Sequence record: MT446394.1
DNA: 40,001 bases
Origin: Escherichia virus TH20
Reading direction: 5' to 3' (one strand)
Shown: positions 8,256 to 40,001 of the stretch, one piece after another
Numbering within the stretch: the stretch's first letter is position 1
Layout of the letters: each line of letters begins with the position of its first letter
Translations under genes and position numbers: made by a program
The notes under the pieces: generated by a model
Databases searched by the model: none
Seen by the model: only the letters and a program-made list of their open reading frames with translations
What the model was told of the DNA's origin: nothing

Positions 8256-10805
8256 TTAAATGGTTGCTATTTGCCACCGTCGATCATAGTAATGGGAGAA
8301 TCCGCTATACGTCAAAGTCATATGAACAATAGCCATTGATATTGATGCTGACGGGCAGCTGACACGGATGAATGTTTGTCCGCCTCTAACTAATTTCTGC
8401 ACATTAAACCCTGACAGGCTTTTATCCCCGGCATCAAGATTACTCCATAAAGCCCCCGATGCTACGTTGGACTCGCTACTACCAGACATACTAAACATCA
8501 AACGCCCTCCAGCCTCTCTACCACCAAGTCCATTTTTGTTTACGGGTATGATTGACATTTCCCCGGCAAGGAAGCACGCACCATACCTTGATTCTTCACC
8601 GACAGTGGTTAGCAGAATGTCTACCGCTCTGTTCCACGGAAGTATGAATGTCGCCTGCTCGGTTTTTACTTCATTAAAATACGCGTCAGCTGTCACATTT
8701 ATTGACGAAAGAGTTACGCCGTCATAGGAGTTACGCCCTTCTAGTGGTGCATGGCCATATACCCTATTTCCTGCTCTGACGCTTCGGATTCTGGTGTCTG
8801 CTAATCTTGAGGCGTCAGCAGCTTTAACGAATCTGAAATTATCTCCTAAAACCAGAGAGTTACCGTAAGCATTAACGTTTCCTGACGTATTTTTGTTTAT
8901 TAAGGCAATATGGTAATCCGCCTTAACATAACCGGAGTCCAGCACAATACTTCCATTCGGCATTCTTGCCTCGCTTGTCGGCATTTCAATGAACCGAGTG
9001 ACACCAGTGTTCATTGAACTTTGAATCCAACATGACAATCCCTTAAGGGTGAACTTAAACTGGTCATCTGTTTCTGCATAATCAGAGAAATCAATACCCA
9101 CAGTGCCGTTTATGCCCTCGATACCCATGCCGTCTATTGTTACGGACCGCAACTGCCCACCTACACGATGTGGTCGTATACAACCATCAGCGGCGATATT
9201 TGACGCAGTTACATACATGACAGGGTATCCACCAGCTACCGGTTCGTACGTACTTCTGTCTATGGAATAACCCCAGAGAAAGCCATCGTCGCAGTGGTGC
9301 GCCCATATAGAATTAATGTTGGTGCTGGTATTTCCACTAAGAGCAATGCCATACTTGCAATCGTACATATAGATGTTTTCTATTGTACTGACGAAAGTAA
9401 GCGCCGGTAGCGCGAATTTATAATGATAGAACTCAACATTACGAATCGTGCACAGTTTACCACCACCACCCGATAATTCGGACCCACTTATCATCAACGG
9501 GCATCCAACATAATCTGCGTCAGCATTTCTGAAAGCAATGTTTTCAACAGAAAGGCTATGGCCCCACGAGGTACTTACGAACCCACCAGTTGTCGATGTG
9601 TATATAATGCTTTTACGGGGAGAGTCACCGATAAGGCTAAGCATTACCCCATCCCATCTATACGCGCTAATGTCAATCTGTGTGCTGCCCATATAGATTG
9701 GCTGTTCGATTAATAAAGGAATATTGTGCGCAATACTTGCGGTATACGCAGCCAGCATCGCGGCCCCGTCGTTATGGGTTCCGGAAAGGTTGGCAGCCCC
9801 CATGCTTGGCGCTTTAGGATATGGAGTACCCTGAATGGTGCTGCCGACGATATATGGAGCATCCATCCATGCGCCAAACATTTTAGGAGTAATTCCCCGA
9901 ACGTTTGATAAGTCCCTTTTCCAGCGCTTACCTCCACTAGTAATTATAACAACGCCATTATCATCATTAGTTGTGGAATCTGCTAAGTCCGCATAGAACC
10001 ACCCACCACCAGAATCACCAGACTCATTTGGTGCAATTGATGTTGTATGTTTTTCTACAAAAATGCGCTGGCCATCAACATCAGGTTCAATAGTTCTTAA
10101 TGTTGATATATCATCGCATTTGCCGATTAACTTAAATCCATCGCTTTTATTTAATTGACTCCTTAATGAAGCATCACCTACACTAACCCACGCACCTACT
10201 CCAATCCCACCGGAAGTTTCAGGAGTTGAACCAGCAGGAACGTTCTTTGGAAGAGTACCATCCCAGCGGTAATAATCACCATCCTCTTCCCATAGCAGGA
10301 CCGTGTTCCATGTTGTAACGTTGAAGCCTTTCTCGAAGGAGCGACTGGTAATATAGCCAATTCGACCAGCTTCCTTGATACTCGCAGCTATTCCTCGTGC
10401 TTCGTCCTCGCTATCCTTAGCGTTGCTAGCAGAGCTACCAGCAGCAGCGGCATATTCCTTCGCTAAGTCAACCGTTTGGTCTCGACCTTCTTCTGCAATA
10501 TGGATAGCCTGAAGCTCTGCATTGGTCAGGTCACTAGCTGTCAACACTGAGCCATTCCTGAAGTCTACCACTAAGTCAGTTCCAGTCTGACGGTGAATAC
10601 GAACGATGTCGAAACCTGATTGGTCAACCAGCATCTCAATCATCGTTGGATTAAGGAATCGGTAATCTCGACCAGCTTCCAGTACACGGTTCAGGGCAGG
10701 GTTAGAGCTATTCACCAGCGTAACAACAACAAACGTTCTGGCTAGGTAGTCGAACTCAATCCTGTACTGAGTGTTTCCTGAAGGGAATTGTGTAATCGTG
10801 GACAT
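8256..10805 (-). CDS. Tailspike: T7 gp17-like N-terminal anchor fused to a depolymerase-like beta-helix body, 849 aa
   Basis: N-terminus FDYLARTFVVVTL...VDFRNGSVLTASDL resembles T7 gp17 1-150; remainder is Gly/Ser/Thr/Asn-rich as in pectate-lyase-fold capsule depolymerases; AAGGAGG upstream. Confidence 0.9.
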   Translation of the reverse strand: MSTITQFPSGNTQYRIEFDYLARTFVVVTLVNSSNPALNRVLEAGRDYRFLNPTMIEMLVDQSGFDIVRIHRQTGTDLVVDFRNGSVLTASDLTNAELQAIHIAEEGRDQTVDLAKEYAAAAGSSASNAKDSEDEARGIAASIKEAGRIGYITSRSFEKGFNVTTWNTVLLWEEDGDYYRWDGTLPKNVPAGSTPETSGGIGVGAWVSVGDASLRSQLNKSDGFKLIGKCDDISTLRTIEPDVDGQRIFVEKHTTSIAPNESGDSGGGWFYADLADSTTNDDNGVVIITSGGKRWKRDLSNVRGITPKMFGAWMDAPYIVGSTIQGTPYPKAPSMGAANLSGTHNDGAAMLAAYTASIAHNIPLLIEQPIYMGSTQIDISAYRWDGVMLSLIGDSPRKSIIYTSTTGGFVSTSWGHSLSVENIAFRNADADYVGCPLMISGSELSGGGGKLCTIRNVEFYHYKFALPALTFVSTIENIYMYDCKYGIALSGNTSTNINSIWAHHCDDGFLWGYSIDRSTYEPVAGGYPVMYVTASNIAADGCIRPHRVGGQLRSVTIDGMGIEGINGTVGIDFSDYAETDDQFKFTLKGLSCWIQSSMNTGVTRFIEMPTSEARMPNGSIVLDSGYVKADYHIALINKNTSGNVNAYGNSLVLGDNFRFVKAADASRLADTRIRSVRAGNRVYGHAPLEGRNSYDGVTLSSINVTADAYFNEVKTEQATFILPWNRAVDILLTTVGEESRYGACFLAGEMSIIPVNKNGLGGREAGGRLMFSMSGSSESNVASGALWSNLDAGDKSLSGFNVQKLVRGGQTFIRVSCPSASISMAIVHMTLTYSGFSHYYDRRWQIATI

Positions 10806-10851
10806 TATGCCTCCTTTGTGATTTAAATGGAGGCCTATGGTAGCGCCTCCC

Positions 10852-10874
10852 GTTTCCTATAGTGATAGTTTAGT
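10852..10874 (-). promoter_or_regulatory. Phage-RNAP promoter upstream of tailspike gene (phi17 position): ACTAAACTATCACTATAGGAAAC
   Basis: 23-mer overlaps gene 16 stop; followed in the leader by hairpin GGAGGC-N10-GCCTCC (10831-10852) and the RBS. Confidence 0.7.
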
Positions 10875-13800
10875 CCTTGATGTGGATGCCTTGCTCCTCA
10901 AACGTTCCAAGCAACAGCTTCTGGGTAATTGGGTCGTTAGGAACCAGTTCACGGAACGTATTATACATCCCGGTCATGTAGTCTCGCTCGTTGACACGAG
11001 TATCAGCCTTGAGGTAGCCAGCCAAGTTGTAAGCCGAAGCACCAACGTTAGCAGCATATCCGAAAGCGGGAACCTGCTCCAAGAAGCTACCAACAACATT
11101 CATCACAGGGTCACTTGTAGCTGCACCATACGCGATGGCACGTTCAGGTTTCTCTGTAGGTGAACGAGGAAGGATAGACGAACGTAGCATCTTAGTGTCC
11201 TCATACCCAGCGATCCCGCCCAGAATGTTGGCGACACCTAGTGGTCCACCGAGATGTGAACTACGTGATAGAGCTGCATATCCAATCATCGTTGGGTCCA
11301 GAGCTTGCTTGAGGTAGTCACGGTCTCGACCATCCTGCATAGCGTAAGCCTTGACATGCACCTGAGCCATGTAGTAGATACCAGCAAGACCCATAGAGAT
11401 CACAGTGGACAGAGCGGCGTCCATCGCTCGGTTGTTCTTCGTGGCGTTATAGAAGGTTCGCATGGTACGTCCATTGATGGACTTGATGACGAAGTTCTTA
11501 AACTGAAGGACAGTCTTAGCGAGAGGACCATAAGCCTTGGCGTCCATGTTTGACAGCTTGTGGGGCCGGAGTAACGTTTCGTCAGCGATGGTGTCACCCA
11601 TACGCCACAGGTCCATAGCCCTTGGGTCCTGACTGAACGCCTTCTTATCCTTGATGGTATACTTCCCGTCTGGACCACGAGTCACTGACTCACGGATTAA
11701 TGACTTAATGCCCTTCCACTGCTCGTCGGAGATACCAGCGGTCTTAAGCCAGCGGTCATCGAACTTACGCTTACTACCAGTCAGGCTATGCTCAACGATG
11801 TCAGACAGGAAGCCTTGACGTCCAGCATCTAACAGGTAGTTGGTCGTACCATTGAGGACTTTAGTGAACGGAGAGCGTACTGCAAGTTCACCAGTGTAAT
11901 ACTTAGCAGTCCCCAGAGCTGTAGCTGTACCACGACCGAGGTCACTGTAAGACCGCAGACGGTCAATGACGTCCTGTTTAGACGGGCGGATTGAGTCATC
12001 AAGTTCCTTACCGAAGAGAACATTGTGAAGGTCCTTAATCTCTGAGGCTCCGACCTTCTTGTTACGGAAGGCTAGGTCACGGAACATCGGGACTCCATGA
12101 AGCATTGCACGAACGTTACCGCGAGCCAGCATACCACCAATCTCCGTTAAGTTCTGAACACCCATGTAGGCATTCTTAGCGAAGAACGATAGGTCTGTCA
12201 TTGTGCGCATCACGGTAGCGAAGGCTGCATCGTCAGCACCATCACGTCGAGCACGACCAGTGAGAATCTTCAAGGTGTCACGTAAGGTCGAGACCTCACC
12301 TTTCAACTTACCGTCATCACCAGCCTTGTTCATCATGGTCTCAACCAAGTCCTTCATTTCCTTCGTGGTCTTGCCTGTACCAGCCATGATAGCAATGTCA
12401 CCATTAACTCGACGGTTGTAGGCCGGGACAATCTTGTCCATGTCCCACTCACGCAGGTTGTTGACACTGAAGGTCTGCCCATTAGGTAGGACGATTGACA
12501 TATCGCTATCGAACAGGTTACGAGCCTCAAGGAAGCTGTTGTTCTCCAGACCAACCAGACCGCTGATGTTCTCTTCCATTACGGATGAACGTTCGAACTG
12601 CTCGGTGTGGGAGATACCGTAAGCCTTATCGTTGGCGTACTTATCTACCGCAGCAGCAAGTCCCTCTGGAGTCAACGTAGGGTCAGCCTCTAAGAGTGCC
12701 TCGTCCACGCGTTTCTTGACTTCAGGTCTGGACGCATAGCTGGTCAACCATGACTTCTTGATGGCCTCCTGCAACGCCTCTTGACTCCCAAGCTCCTTGA
12801 TGTACAGCTCCTTCATCTGTTTGCTATACACGTGAGGGACGTAGGTTCCCTTGAAGCGGCTACCCGGAAAGATAGACTGAGCGTCTGGCCGACCAAACAT
12901 AGCTGGGTTCTCCATCATCTCACGCTTGGCGTCAAACTGGTTCTTCAGTAGGTCATAGACTTTCAGTTCTCCCGGAGTCAGTTCAGCCTTCAGGTTTCCG
13001 CTACCATCTTCGATAGCCATAGACACGCGCTGGTAGATGTCCTGACGGAATGCTCCAGAGTCTCGCCAGAATGCTGTCTGGAAGTACGGGTCCTTTAGTG
13101 CCTCAGTAACCGCATCGTCGATGTCGTTGTAGAACCGATGGTCCACAGCACGAAGTCTCTCGAACACGTCTGACGATGTTGTCCCGATTTTACCTGAGGC
13201 CCCAGACTGCATACCAGTAGGTGAACGCACTAAGTCAGCAGCTACTCCACGAATCTCAGGGTTCTCAGACCGAAGCAGCTTCAGGCCAATCTCGGTAAGT
13301 CCACCAAGGTTCACACCAGCAGCGGCACGTTCCGGCTCAATCACTTCGTCAAAGACTTGACGTGTCTTAGGGTTCAGAGGGTTCTCACCAATCAGGATTG
13401 AACCGTCTTCTAATCGTACACTTCCCGGCTCATTCGGAACGTCAGCGAACTTAACGCCTTGATGACTAAAGGTCTGCTCACCTTCCTGAATAGGGAGACG
13501 AGACAGGTCCTGACCAACAACGTTACGAGCGGTCTCACGAGCTTCCAGACGTGTAGCTGGACCAGCAAACTCGTTGGTTGACTTGCCTAGGGCCTTGCCG
13601 ATAGCGTCCCCGATAGCTGTCATTCCCCCACCGAAGAGAGCACCGCCCATAATTGCCTCAGCCACGTGAGCGTCCCCACCAGCAACTGAGGTTCGAGCAA
13701 TCTCGGATGCCCCAGCCAGAGCACCAGACTGAGCAGCCACAGTGAACATCTTGTTGACTAGCTTCCCACCTTTACCTACCTGCCAAGCAATAGGAACGTA

Positions 13801-33136: not shown

Positions 33137-33159
33137 CATCCCTAAGGTGATAGTTTAGG
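33137..33159 (-). promoter_or_regulatory. Phage-promoter-like site with altered melting region (CACCTTAGGG instead of CACTATAGGG) upstream of primase-helicase gene
   Basis: Upstream half CCTAAACTATCAC is consensus; -4/-3 changed; function uncertain. Confidence 0.35.
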
Positions 33160-33370
33160 CTTTGAAGAACTGAGACAACTGGTCAGCTTTGGTGTCAGCC
33201 TGACGTGCCTTCATGCCAGCTTCCAGTGACGCGATGGTCAGCTTGTCAGCCAGAGCAGCAGCATCAGCCGCACCGTCAGCAGTCTTCTCTGCTACCTTTC
33301 GTTCCATAACCGCAGCACGACGATAACCACGCACCACCAGACGACCAAGAAATTCGATAAGTTTAATCAT
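33155..33370 (-). CDS. Hypothetical small Ala-rich protein, 71 aa
   Basis: ATG 33370 with AAGGAGA upstream; pattern MxKLIxxLGxLxVRxY...QLSxFF resembles a small T7 protein I cannot place reliably. Confidence 0.5.
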   Translation of the reverse strand: MIKLIEFLGRLVVRGYRRAAVMERKVAEKTADGAADAAALADKLTIASLEAGMKARQADTKADQLSQFFKA

Positions 33371-33393: not shown

Positions 33394-33852
33394 TTAACCG
33401 CGGTCGGAAGTGACTAGTCCGTTGGTAGACAGCCAGCGCTGTAAGTCGAAACTTGGACACGCCTTTGGTGCTACGTCATGATGTGCTTTGATTTCTGCCT
33501 GAGGATACAGGACCTTCAGGTCAGCCAGCTTGTTGCGCAGGGAGTTCATCTGGGCTGGAGTGAAGTTAGCTTCAAACTTGCCCTTAGCGTCAATTCCACC
33601 TACAAGGCAGACGCCTACGGACCAGGAGTTCCAATCCTTAACGTGTGACCCTACGACATTGACCGGGCGACCCTCTTCCACAGTACCATCGCGCTTGATG
33701 ATAAAGTGGTAGCCTACGTCCAGCCATCCTTGCTGCTTGTGCCACATGCGGATGGTCTCTACCCCAATGTCCATCTCTGGCTTGGTAGCCGAACAGTGAA
33801 CGAAGATAGCGTCAGTTCGGGACCGTGGTTTGAACTGAACCTTACTTACCAT
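33394..33852 (-). CDS. N-acetylmuramoyl-L-alanine amidase / T7 lysozyme (gp3.5-like), 152 aa
   Basis: TDAIFVHCSATKP, HKQQGWLDVGYHFIIKRDGTVE, HHDVAPKACPSFDL, LVTSDRG match T7 gp3.5. Confidence 0.95.
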   Translation of the reverse strand: MVSKVQFKPRSRTDAIFVHCSATKPEMDIGVETIRMWHKQQGWLDVGYHFIIKRDGTVEEGRPVNVVGSHVKDWNSWSVGVCLVGGIDAKGKFEANFTPAQMNSLRNKLADLKVLYPQAEIKAHHDVAPKACPSFDLQRWLSTNGLVTSDRG

Positions 33853-34151
33853 TGTACACCACCAGCTCTACTACGACCAGATTCAGATGTGACAGGAGGG
33901 ACGCTTGATGCTGGCAGGACTTGAGGTTTATCCTCTACAATTTCCTCAAGATATTCATTTAAAACCCATGCTCCCCACATTCCGTCAGGCTGCGTGTTAG
34001 GACCCGCGCTACCGTGCTTGTAGTAGCCACGCTCGGAGGATTCTACCAGAGTAATGCCAAGCCGGGTTGATGGGTCTTTCACACATTTCGTAACGATAGT
34101 ACTTTTAGGCCACCCGTGGCGGCTAACTTTAAGTTTATATTTCTGAGTCAT
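33846..34151 (-). CDS. Hypothetical protein, 101 aa, inserted between endonuclease I and lysozyme genes
   Basis: ATG 34151 overlaps endonuclease I stop (ATGA), AAGGAG upstream; no T7 counterpart recalled; C-terminal half low complexity. Confidence 0.5.
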   Translation of the reverse strand: MTQKYKLKVSRHGWPKSTIVTKCVKDPSTRLGITLVESSERGYYKHGSAGPNTQPDGMWGAWVLNEYLEEIVEDKPQVLPASSVPPVTSESGRSRAGGVQW

Positions 34152-34603
34152 CACTTAACTCCTTTCTTCTTTGGAATGAGTATACCCGAAGGCAGACGTA
34201 CAGTCGCCTCTCGAAGCCACTCAACCGGGATGAACTTATCGGCATACTTATAGCCGTTCTTTTCGCACCATGCGCCATACGTGGTCGGAGACCCTTTGTA
34301 TAGCTTGGAGCGGGAACTTGAGAACACGAACCGGATGTCTAACTCTGGGTGCTGTTCTCGTACCAGAAGATGCTTCTTACGGTCATCACTATCGAAGATA
34401 CCTTTGGTCTCCACGATGATACCGTTAGGAAGGATAAAGTCCGGCGTGTAGAAGTGGTCCGAAGCAGGAACAACGTACCCAATCTTATATGCTTCATACT
34501 CTGCCTTGACTCCGTTCTTCTCGAGCCACTCTTGGTTCTTTGCTTCCAGTCCAGAGCGGTAAGTCCCGACTGCGTGTCCTCGTGATGCTGACCACTTAGC
34601 CAT
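34151..34603 (-). CDS. Endonuclease I, Holliday junction resolvase (T7 gp3-like), 150 aa
   Basis: FRSGLE, YTPDFxLPNGIxVETKG, SDDRKKHLLxREQHPELDIRxVFSSSRxKLYKGSPT match T7 gp3; real start ATG 34603 (GGAG upstream); track start is TTG. Confidence 0.9.
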   Translation of the reverse strand: MAKWSASRGHAVGTYRSGLEAKNQEWLEKNGVKAEYEAYKIGYVVPASDHFYTPDFILPNGIIVETKGIFDSDDRKKHLLVREQHPELDIRFVFSSSRSKLYKGSPTTYGAWCEKNGYKYADKFIPVEWLREATVRLPSGILIPKKKGVK

Positions 34604-35036
34604 GTTTGATTCTCCATATAATTGCTTGCGGAGTAACACCAAACATCTTGGCTAAATCTACAGGCTTCATATCAGACTTCAGGATAAACTCTACGTCTTC
34701 CTCGGTCAGCTTAGTCTTCTGGTTAGCTTCTCCTTTGAACACTGGCGGTTTCGAATGACGACCCCGCTTCACGCAATCCTGCATGTTGTCTGTCTGAGTC
34801 CCGACTTCAAGATGTTCCGGGTTACAGCAGCAAGGGTTGTCACATTTATGGCGAACTAGGAGGCCATCAGGTATTGGACCACAGTGCTCTCTATAAGAGA
34901 CTCTATGCGCGTAGTCCTGTTTCTGGTTGCCTATGGATATTCTACCATAACCTTGTTTGTACCGGGAGCGTTGCCACTCCCAGCAGCCAGAAGGAGAAAC
35001 TATAGAGTAAGCCTCCAGTTTCTCTTTCAGTGTCAT
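34596..35036 (-). CDS. HNH homing-endonuclease-like protein, free-standing, between SSB and endonuclease I genes
   Basis: HRVSYREHCGPIPDGLLVRHKCDNPCCCNPEHLEVGTQTDN; ATG overlaps SSB stop (TAATG). Confidence 0.8.
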   Translation of the reverse strand: MTLKEKLEAYSIVSPSGCWEWQRSRYKQGYGRISIGNQKQDYAHRVSYREHCGPIPDGLLVRHKCDNPCCCNPEHLEVGTQTDNMQDCVKRGRHSKPPVFKGEANQKTKLTEEDVEFILKSDMKPVDLAKMFGVTPQAIIWRIKHG

Positions 35037-35773: not shown

Positions 35774-35796
35774 CTGTCCTACAGTGATAGTTTAGG
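35774..35796 (-). promoter_or_regulatory. Phage-promoter-like site with CACTGTAGGA core (phi2.5 position)
   Basis: Upstream half consensus; -3 A to G; overlaps stop of gp2-like gene. Confidence 0.5.
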
Positions 35797-35950
35797 TCTC
35801 AGGACGAATCCGTCCGACCACAAACCCAGCGTCCTCATACTCTTGGGACTTCAGGGTAGCCTCTTCAAGAGACTTTGCGTACACCGGAACATCGAAGGAC
35901 TGAATGCGCCCCTCAAGCTCCACGATGTATTTCTTCTCAACCTCAGTCAT
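35792..35950 (-). CDS. Host RNA polymerase inhibitor (T7 Gp2-like), 52 aa
   Basis: Hand translation; [14 protein letters not shown]...[13 protein letters not shown] parallels T7 Gp2 SFEVPIYAETLDEA...YVPAGFEVTRVRP; AAGGAG upstream; below track cutoff. Confidence 0.75.
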
Positions 35951-38828: not shown

Positions 38829-40001
38829 TTAAGCGAATGCAAAGTCTGAAGACAAGATGTCTTCGATATTCAGTTTACCTTTCTTCGGAAGCTCTGGCAA
38901 CTTATCGCGCTGGCTCTCATGAAGCTGGTATTCAAACTGCTCATAGAAGTCAAGCAGCACATCGTTGTCTCGGTAGGTCTCGACCATCGTCTCACGGACA
39001 CCACGGAACAGATACTCAGCGTCAGCCGGGATGGTCCCGAAGCTATCATGAATCACTGCGAATGACATCACGTCATACTTGCGATGAGTGTGGACTACAG
39101 TCTTGCGTAGGTGGCTACCATCTTGTGAGTGGACGAAGTTCGGGCTAATGCCTGACTCCTGCTTGTGCTTGTCCAGCTCTTTCTTCGTGCCTTTGTTGAC
39201 GGTAGGCTGAAGGTTGAATGACCCTAAGAACATCAGGTTCAGACGAGTGGTATCCTTCTTGCGGTATTCCTGCCAGACCGGGAAACCATCAGGTGTGACC
39301 CAGTGTACCGGAAGGCAAGGCTTCAGGATTTCACCCGTCTTCTTGTCCTTCACTTCAGCAGCCAGCAGCTTGGCAGCACCTTGAAGCCACTTCATAGCGT
39401 CTACCGCAGCAACTACGGTCACGCTCACAGCTTCCCAAATCATCTTAGCCATGAATCGGGACGCTTGGCTTGGCTCGGTGAACATAGCTCCAGACCCTGC
39501 GTCAATTGCGGGCATCACGATGTCCTCGTAAACTTGGTCTGCGAAGCCGTACTCTTTCGACCCGTAGGCCAGAGTCATGACTGAGCGCTTAGTAACCTTG
39601 CGTGACATACCGTAAGTCAGCCACTGCCGGGCCAGCTCTCGTGTCCCCAGCTTGAGACGTTCGGTAATCTCACCAGTTTTCTTGTCCTCGTGAGTTACCA
39701 TCTCGTTGTCCGTGCCGTTAACCAACAGGACTTTAAGCTCCTCCTCAATGCGGTCAGACACGATGCGGTAGATGTCTTGGACCTTACCGGAAGGCGTCAG
39801 GTTTACTGCATGTCCACCGATGTGATCACGAAGCATCGCGCTGAAGTGCTGAATCCCAGAGCAGGACCCATCGAAAGCTATCGGCAGCGAGCAGGAGTAA
39901 GACAAACCGTGGTGCATTACGCCAGCATACTCGAAGCAGAACGCTAGGAAGCAGAACGGAGAGTCTAACTTACCCCACCACTCAATGCTGTCCATCGGTG
40001 C
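38829..40001 (-). CDS. T7-type RNA polymerase (gene 1), C-terminal 390 codons plus stop; the part above 39194 duplicates 1-807
   Basis: Translation ends ...DILSSDFAFA as T7 RNAP; contains HQESGI.PNFVHSQDGSHLR and IHDSFGT active-site region; stop at 38829. Confidence 0.95.
   Translation of the reverse strand, partial: APMDSIEWWGKLDSPFCFLAFCFEYAGVMHHGLSYSCSLPIAFDGSCSGIQHFSAMLRDHIGGHAVNLTPSGKVQDIYRIVSDRIEEELKVLLVNGTDNEMVTHEDKKTGEITERLKLGTRELARQWLTYGMSRKVTKRSVMTLAYGSKEYGFADQVYEDIVMPAIDAGSGAMFTEPSQASRFMAKMIWEAVSVTVVAAVDAMKWLQGAAKLLAAEVKDKKTGEILKPCLPVHWVTPDGFPVWQEYRKKDTTRLNLMFLGSFNLQPTVNKGTKKELDKHKQESGISPNFVHSQDGSHLRKTVVHTHRKYDVMSFAVIHDSFGTIPADAEYLFRGVRETMVETYRDNDVLLDFYEQFEYQLHESQRDKLPELPKKGKLNIEDILSSDFAFA
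39195..40001. repeat. Window-end duplication, copy 2 (same sequence as 1-807)
   Basis: See copy 1. Confidence 0.9.

Follow-up and report, generated by a model that had tools for sequence, protein, structure and literature searches.

The 101-aa open reading frame (ORF) between the endonuclease I and lysozyme genes of Escherichia virus TH20 (MT446394.1) is best explained as a deletion-derived, frameshifted allele of gene 3.2, a probable class II (DNA-metabolism region) accessory gene confined to K1F-like phages of the T7 family; we place the probability of this reading at about 0.88. The history read from the alignments involves: recombination or slippage between two GTCAC repeats, which removed 161 bp; loss of the C-terminal domain together with a shift of frame, because 161 is 2 mod 3; and translation that would now add 13 nonsense residues and stop at the TAA within ATGGTAA, the start of the lysozyme gene. 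The window is the whole stretch of DNA analysed here (40,001 nucleotides), and the features that matter for the argument are listed below in its coordinates.

35778..35802, minus strand: nearest upstream phage-RNA-polymerase promoter-like repeat, 5′ of gene 2.5 (reverse complement ..CTAAACTATCACTGTAGG)
34151..34603, minus strand: gene 3, endonuclease I, 150 aa from the ATG that relatives use
34159..34164, minus strand: Shine-Dalgarno sequence AAGGAG, 7 nt 5′ of the ATG of gene 3.2 and within the 3′ end of gene 3
33846..34151, minus strand: truncated gene 3.2 ORF, 101 aa plus stop, orthologue of K1F gp3.2
33936..34151, minus strand: codons 1-72, predicted N-terminal SH3-like β-barrel domain ("type A" N module), intact
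33888..33935, minus strand: codons 73-88, acidic, Pro-rich interdomain linker (EDKPQVLPASSVPPVT), in the original frame according to the alignments
33889..33893, minus strand: deletion junction with the single retained GTCAC (5-bp direct repeat), placed by pairwise alignment with the nearest relative, L004, and by four-way alignment
33849..33887, minus strand: codons 89-101, out-of-frame tail SESGRSRAGGVQW, the +1 frame of the ancestral last ~40 nt
33853..33893, minus strand: ancestral gene 3.2 3′ end, 41 nt retained 5′ of the gene 3.5 ATG (GCTGGTGGTGTACA), ribosome-binding region
33846..33852, minus strand: ATGGTAA, 7 nt, the gene 3.5 start overlapping the new stop of truncated gene 3.2
33394..33852, minus strand: gene 3.5, N-acetylmuramoyl-L-alanine amidase (T7 lysozyme homologue)

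The window holds a Kayfunavirus genome (K1F-like Studiervirinae, T7 family). Of the 246 phage records that match a 1.4-kb region, nearly all are Kayfunavirus, and Escherichia phage ST31 is the best match at 92%. The window wraps around a genome of 39,194 bp, bases 1-807 being identical to 39195-40001 (807 bp), and the RNA polymerase gene spans the two window ends. Every gene in this part of the window lies on the minus strand, in the order 2.5 (SSB), HNH, 3, the ORF, 3.5, 3.7 and 4. The upstream neighbour is endonuclease I (Pfam Phage_endo_I, E 2.1e-77) and the downstream neighbour an amidase/lysozyme (Amidase_2, E 1.4e-15; PHROG 822, E 1.6e-79). The ORF listing carries endonuclease I to a TTG at 34642; relatives use the ATG at 34603 (150 aa), which overlaps the end of the HNH gene by 8 nt. 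Between genes 2.5 and 3, this HNH homing-endonuclease gene (34596-35036, minus strand) takes the place that gene 2.8 has in T7. Hafnia phage Ca, a related Kayfunavirus, has a mixed population with a 397-bp HNH deletion (PMC8861465); identity of the window with this phage, or of the two deletions, is rejected, as the Ca deletion lies elsewhere in the genome. Three plus-strand ORFs (33706-33924, 33905-34000 and 34054-34146) are judged unlikely to be genes from their strand and position: they are antisense, they overlap conserved minus-strand genes, and all genes identified in the genome sit on the other strand.

Transcription of the region would follow from an 11-copy promoter-like repeat family (D2; reverse complement ..CTAAACTATCACTATAGG) that probably marks the phage-polymerase promoters. 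The copy 5′ of gene 2.5 is the probable source of a transcript covering 2.5-HNH-3-3.2-3.5-3.7. A further copy lies on the gene strand at 33141-33165, between genes 3.7 and 4, and across the whole window none of the 11 copies falls inside gene 3.2. The count of terminator-like sites is not above shuffle expectation.

The ORF itself reads from an ATG at 34151-34149 to a TAA at 33848-33846, giving a product of 101 aa; the ORF listing places the start one codon further upstream, at a GTG at 34154. The AAGGAG Shine-Dalgarno sequence is kept in alignments with K1F, ST31, PE3-1 and L004, and the initial annotation was correct in crediting the gene with a good ribosome-binding site and with an overlap onto the lysozyme start. 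The overlap that it described with the endonuclease I stop also exists, but it consists of one shared base (TGATG) rather than the four-base ATGA. Its statement that T7 has no counterpart here agrees with NC_001604, where gene 3 (10257-10706) abuts gene 3.5 (10706-11161). The composition that it noted is borne out in the N-terminal half, which is basic (residues 1-50: pI 10.0, 10 K+R). Residues 75-101 are 67% S/P/V/G/A, in keeping with the low-complexity C-terminal half that it described, but the truncation of this copy was not visible to it: the Ser/Pro/Val-rich character arises because the Pro-rich linker of the family (QVLPASSVPPVT) is followed by 13 out-of-frame residues.

The family to which the ORF belongs is readily recognized. 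Residues 1-89 match profile positions 1-90 of 157 in PHROG 16385 (E 1.1e-44), and the ORF matches 75 protein clusters at E 1e-6 to 1e-47, so that the call of a genuine gene at 33846-34151 stands. Over the first 88 residues, identity is 55-79% to the proteins of K1F, PE3-1 and ST31, and 98% over 88 aa to P0077. The annotated neighbours in K1F, ST31 and PE3-1 run gp3, gp3.2 (156-157 aa), gp3.5; the ORF shares with gene 3.2 both the start overlapping the gene 3 stop and the slot between gene 3 and gene 3.5. In sequence records the family goes under the names K1F gp3.2, CR44b 3.01 and PE3-1 gp3.2, with the labels "gp3.2 protein", "hypothetical" and, for CR44b 3.01, "conserved hypothetical phage protein". 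Relatives are 155-163 aa long, and an intact gp3.2 has ~156 aa in two domains with a C-terminal block YVKISNSHVFN..QMHTT..RF. The ORF lacks this full length, the block being deleted, and it also lacks the ~70-aa C-terminal barrel that characterizes PHROG 15211.

On these alignments, the ORF is a member of the gp3.2 family by descent, yet an incomplete one. The initial annotation had called it unassigned and had suggested a comparison with syntenic phages; K1F, ST31 and PE3-1 carry gp3.2 at the same position, and the ORF is K1F gene 3.2 (PHROG 16385), a known conserved gene of this phage group, which is the very finding that the initial annotation had named as refuting it. The annotation should accordingly read truncated gene 3.2 (K1F-type), not new gene. 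What is new here is a truncated member arising from a 161-bp microhomology deletion; the uncharacterised family itself (K1F gp3.2, PHROG 16385) was already known. The K1F records differ from one another at the 3′ end of gene 3.2: tblastn recovers only residues 1-134 in DQ111067 and all 156 in NC_007636, the RefSeq record derived from AM084414. This suggests a frameshift difference between DQ111067 and AM084414, or a sequencing error in one of the two.

The evidence for the deletion comes from protein, pairwise DNA and four-way DNA alignments, in all of which a 161-nt block present in K1F, PE3-1, ST31 and L004 is absent from the window. At the DNA level, the last ~40 nt of gene 3.2 align again 3′ of this gap. 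L004, a 39.9-kb Logan contig, is the nearest relative, with 92-97% identity along most of the genome that aligns. Within gene 3.2, the window differs from it by 2 substitutions and the 161-bp gap only, and in L004 the gap is flanked on both sides by GTCAC: CCTCCT[GTCAC]CGTT ... TTCCA[GTCAC]ATCTG. The one GTCAC copy that the window retains is, on this comparison, what a deletion between short direct repeats leaves behind. The tail SESGRSRAGGVQW corresponds to the +1-frame reading of the ancestral ...HLNLVVVELVVYNGK end, and the new stop lies 4 nt before the ancestral one. Both substitutions relative to L004 are non-synonymous: G17S (34101-34103, codon 17) and V63 vs F63 (33963-33965). At least 90% of relatives have G at position 17, and a test of relaxed selection since the deletion would need more than these two changes.

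The resulting form is rare. In a search of 5.8 billion sequences, the 101-aa form accounts for 1 of 76 protein clusters, the window's own, and nearly all the others are 155-163 aa long. The deletion junction was not found in other phage records. Relocation of the missing domain within the genome is rejected, since tblastn with the C domain finds no copy elsewhere in the window.

The significance of the loss depends on the architecture of the intact protein. Intact gp3.2 is predicted to begin with an SH3-like barrel and, after a Pro-rich linker, to end in a nearly invariant small β-barrel of ~70 aa; the N-domain model of a relative is SH3-like with pLDDT 89-96. Of the 219 phage records with the C domain, only 56 also have the window-type N domain. 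As the remaining ~160 records keep the C domain without the window-type N domain, the N domain is optional in the family. Genes of 74-75 aa that encode the C domain only (PHROG 15211) are common and include those of Dev2, SH1-5, pO91 and many Salmonella and Enterobacter phages. The constant barrel (~70 aa) occurs either alone or behind at least four unrelated N modules (L010-L012, L025; P0079, P0082-P0088, P0095-P0116), and one protein of 226 aa carries two N modules in tandem before the C domain. The two domains do not represent an internal duplication (hhalign probability 0.06%). By this reading of the domain content, it is the universal module that the window phage lacks and the optional one that it retains.

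Both halves of the gene are, by their substitution patterns, under purifying selection in relatives. For the C domain, dN/dS is ~0.12 at a mean dS of 0.83; for the N domain, it is 0.15-0.6. Conservation of the deleted segment as a promoter or other cis element is rejected: no phage-promoter repeat lies there and its synonymous sites vary, and its conservation is therefore at the protein level. Among L001-L009, the N domain has often diverged 2-4 times as much as the C domain at synonymous sites within the same genome pairs, which indicates mosaic ancestry or additional constraint on the nucleotides close to the start of gene 3.5. In another T7-like phage (L034, 3558-4429; MN855780.1), a homologue 44% identical over the C domain starts on the endonuclease I stop, with two extra small ORFs between it and the amidase gene; the conserved linkage is therefore to gene 3 and not to gene 3.5.

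The window is not the sole case in which gene 3.2 has lost its C domain. Two further lineages carry such alleles, which arose independently.

L029 and L030, 1501-1704 in each: 67 aa; runs SRR9897379 and SRR9897390; deletion of ~263 bp; junction CACGG
L031, 1501-1626: 41 aa; run SRR21291471; deletion of ~341-344 bp; junction ACCCAGC-like

Both come from near-complete Kayfunavirus genomes, and in both the C domain is lost and the N domain is also cut. As in the window, the deletions are 2 mod 3, the product ends in the same ..GGVQW* +1-frame tail, and the stop is the same TAA in ATGGTAA; recurrence of one frame in three deletions is weakly non-random, at about a 1 in 9 coincidence. At least 41 nt 5′ of the gene 3.5 ATG are retained in each. 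The common frame and retained leader are suggestive, and would be consistent with a need for the lysozyme ribosome-binding site and translational coupling. The ribosome-binding site of gp3.5 in related phages has been listed as GCTGGTGGTgtacaATG (PMC4925675). A different event is seen in L033 (1501-1716, 4 samples), where the N domain is cut at about residue 58 and followed by an unrelated tail, FVMAANGDTSNGH, and where gene 3.5 has a different leader and start (MVTKVQF); such a junction resembles the product of recombination more than a simple deletion. In-frame deletions within the N domain that retain the C domain are present in P0081, P0096 and P0101. These natural deletions show gene 3.2 to be deletion-prone and dispensable in at least some settings.

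For the window allele, the remnant of gene 3.2 would still be transcribed from the promoter 5′ of gene 2.5 and translated from its own AAGGAG, as we infer only from the ribosome-binding site and operon position. The 41 retained nucleotides and the overlapping stop would preserve the lysozyme ribosome-binding region and termination-reinitiation coupling, and such deletions may survive because both are preserved. Essentially all relatives keep the C domain and the N domain is optional; activity that depends on the C domain should therefore be lost. The 101-aa product is most likely null or at best a hypomorph, in the form of a free N-terminal binding module, and what the ORF chiefly still does may be to bring ribosomes to the start of the lysozyme gene.

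A functional stand-alone N-domain protein with the host-interaction or replication accessory role that the initial annotation suggested, for which loss of the C domain was neutral or adaptive, is an unlikely alternative to a degraded allele. The N domain and linker are left precisely intact by the deletion, which speaks against a remnant and would also fit a selected N-only product; the N domain left behind is one that folds with confidence in the model of the relative, N modules act as independent, exchangeable units in the family, and the ribosome-binding site and coupling to the neighbours are preserved. Set against this, the N-only form recurs in no further phage record or cluster of proteins, and the tail is plainly out-of-frame sequence. 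The N domain is also the part of the family that is optional, and its truncation in L029, L031 and L033 indicates that loss of the whole gene is tolerated.

Adaptive loss of the C domain is a more doubtful proposal. Here, the C barrel would be sensed by a host defence system, or be costly in its presence, and the deletions would be escape variants. Such selection would be in line with the three or more deletions that arose independently, each with its own junction, in near-complete genomes of separate sequencing runs, and with the recombinant replacement in the 4 samples of L033. In T7-like phages, escape from abortive-infection systems often maps to non-essential early or middle genes, a general pattern into which gene 3.2 would fit. 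In non-essential genes of the T7 family, however, short-repeat deletions are common and neutral, by far the most relatives keep the C domain (219 records), and the in-frame N-domain deletions suggest that the gene may simply be deletion-prone. An extended form of the proposal is similarly speculative: gene 3.2 would encode a modular host-interaction factor, or an anti-defence or defence-triggering factor, whose C barrel (SNSH..QMHTT..R) binds a conserved partner; loss of the C domain would be a selected escape or host adaptation; and the N module would act alone in the window phage.

An origin of the deletion in faulty assembly or sequencing, or its presence only as a minor variant in a phage that truly has the full 156-aa gene, is very improbable. 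The junction is in one genome only, and mixed deletion populations are documented in Hafnia phage Ca (PMC8861465). An independently built Logan assembly of SRR11772942, which may share reads with the deposited record and does not distinguish a minority from a majority deletion sub-population, is 100% identical to the window over 6,306 bp including the junction; the reads themselves thus carry the deletion, and editing of the record did not create it. A loss of exactly 161 bp between direct repeats of 5 bp is, moreover, the mark of a biological deletion and not a typical assembly error, and analogous deletions occur in other runs. That the ORF is a chance reading frame, as its small size and the lack of a Pfam or NCBIfam family might suggest, can be dismissed given the PHROG 16385 match, the 75 homologous clusters, dN/dS below 1 in relatives, the ribosome-binding site and its place on the coding strand of a unidirectional genome.

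Returning to the truncated gene 3.2 allele, the function that it may have lost has few leads. Pfam gives only a sub-threshold hit to DUF7903 for the ORF (E 0.16), nothing for full-length relatives, and only a sub-threshold hit to Imm11 for the C domain (E 0.037); NCBIfam has no family for gp3.2. A PDB sequence search with the family profile returns 0 matches at E up to 10, and Foldseek against the BFVD viral structures returns nothing below E 0.03. An HMM search of 1.84 billion cluster representatives yields 17 matches, all within the same narrow family, and no distant relatives of known function among those representatives. A literature search found no study of gene 3.2, with K1F gp3.2 appearing only as a table entry in PMC4925675. 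The host-interaction or replication-accessory role that had been suggested for the 101-aa product is neither supported nor excluded by these searches.

The indirect clues are: small, non-enzymatic-looking barrels; a fixed position after endonuclease I; and the combination of a constant C module with variable N modules. Our best guess, held with low confidence, is that intact gp3.2 acts by binding, not as an enzyme, and serves as an adaptor within the DNA-metabolism module. Its constant C barrel would engage one conserved partner, either nucleic acid or a phage or host protein of that module, and the variable N modules would add lineage-specific specificity.

The window documents a viable phage, assembled as a complete genome, that does without the domain best conserved in an uncharacterised family with members in more than 200 T7-like phages. 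L004, two substitutions apart and with an intact gene, forms with the window and the other deletion alleles a natural pair for testing the dispensability and role of gp3.2. For catalogues of Autographiviridae accessory genes, the constant C barrel, the exchangeable N modules and the position after endonuclease I provide a modest lead.

Among known systems, the closest is K1F gp3.2 (CAJ29361, 157 aa), which shares with the window copy its locus, start overlap, ribosome-binding site and linker, and N-terminal 88 residues that are 55-98% identical. In contrast to K1F gp3.2, the window copy is without the C-terminal domain (residues 89-156), has the 13-aa frameshift tail and stops 4 nt earlier. 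The Dev2/SH1-type gp3.2 (74-75 aa; PHROG 15211) occupies the same genomic slot and belongs to the same gene family, but it consists of the C domain only. This is the one domain that the window lost, and the two products have no residues in common except through out-of-frame DNA. At the level of fold, both gp3.2 domains are predicted to have a five-strand barrel topology that may be shared with SH3-like barrels such as eukaryotic SH3, KOW, the L2 C-terminal domain, FeoA and EF-P domain I.

Classical T7 genetics provides the parallel for the deletion itself, in the form of spontaneous deletions between short direct repeats in non-essential genes. The gene 3.2 cases resemble these in the short (5-7 bp) direct repeat, the one copy kept and the dispensable early or middle gene affected. 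They differ in occurring in natural or environmental isolates, not selected laboratory stocks, and in the recurrence of one frame outcome in three gene 3.2 lineages.
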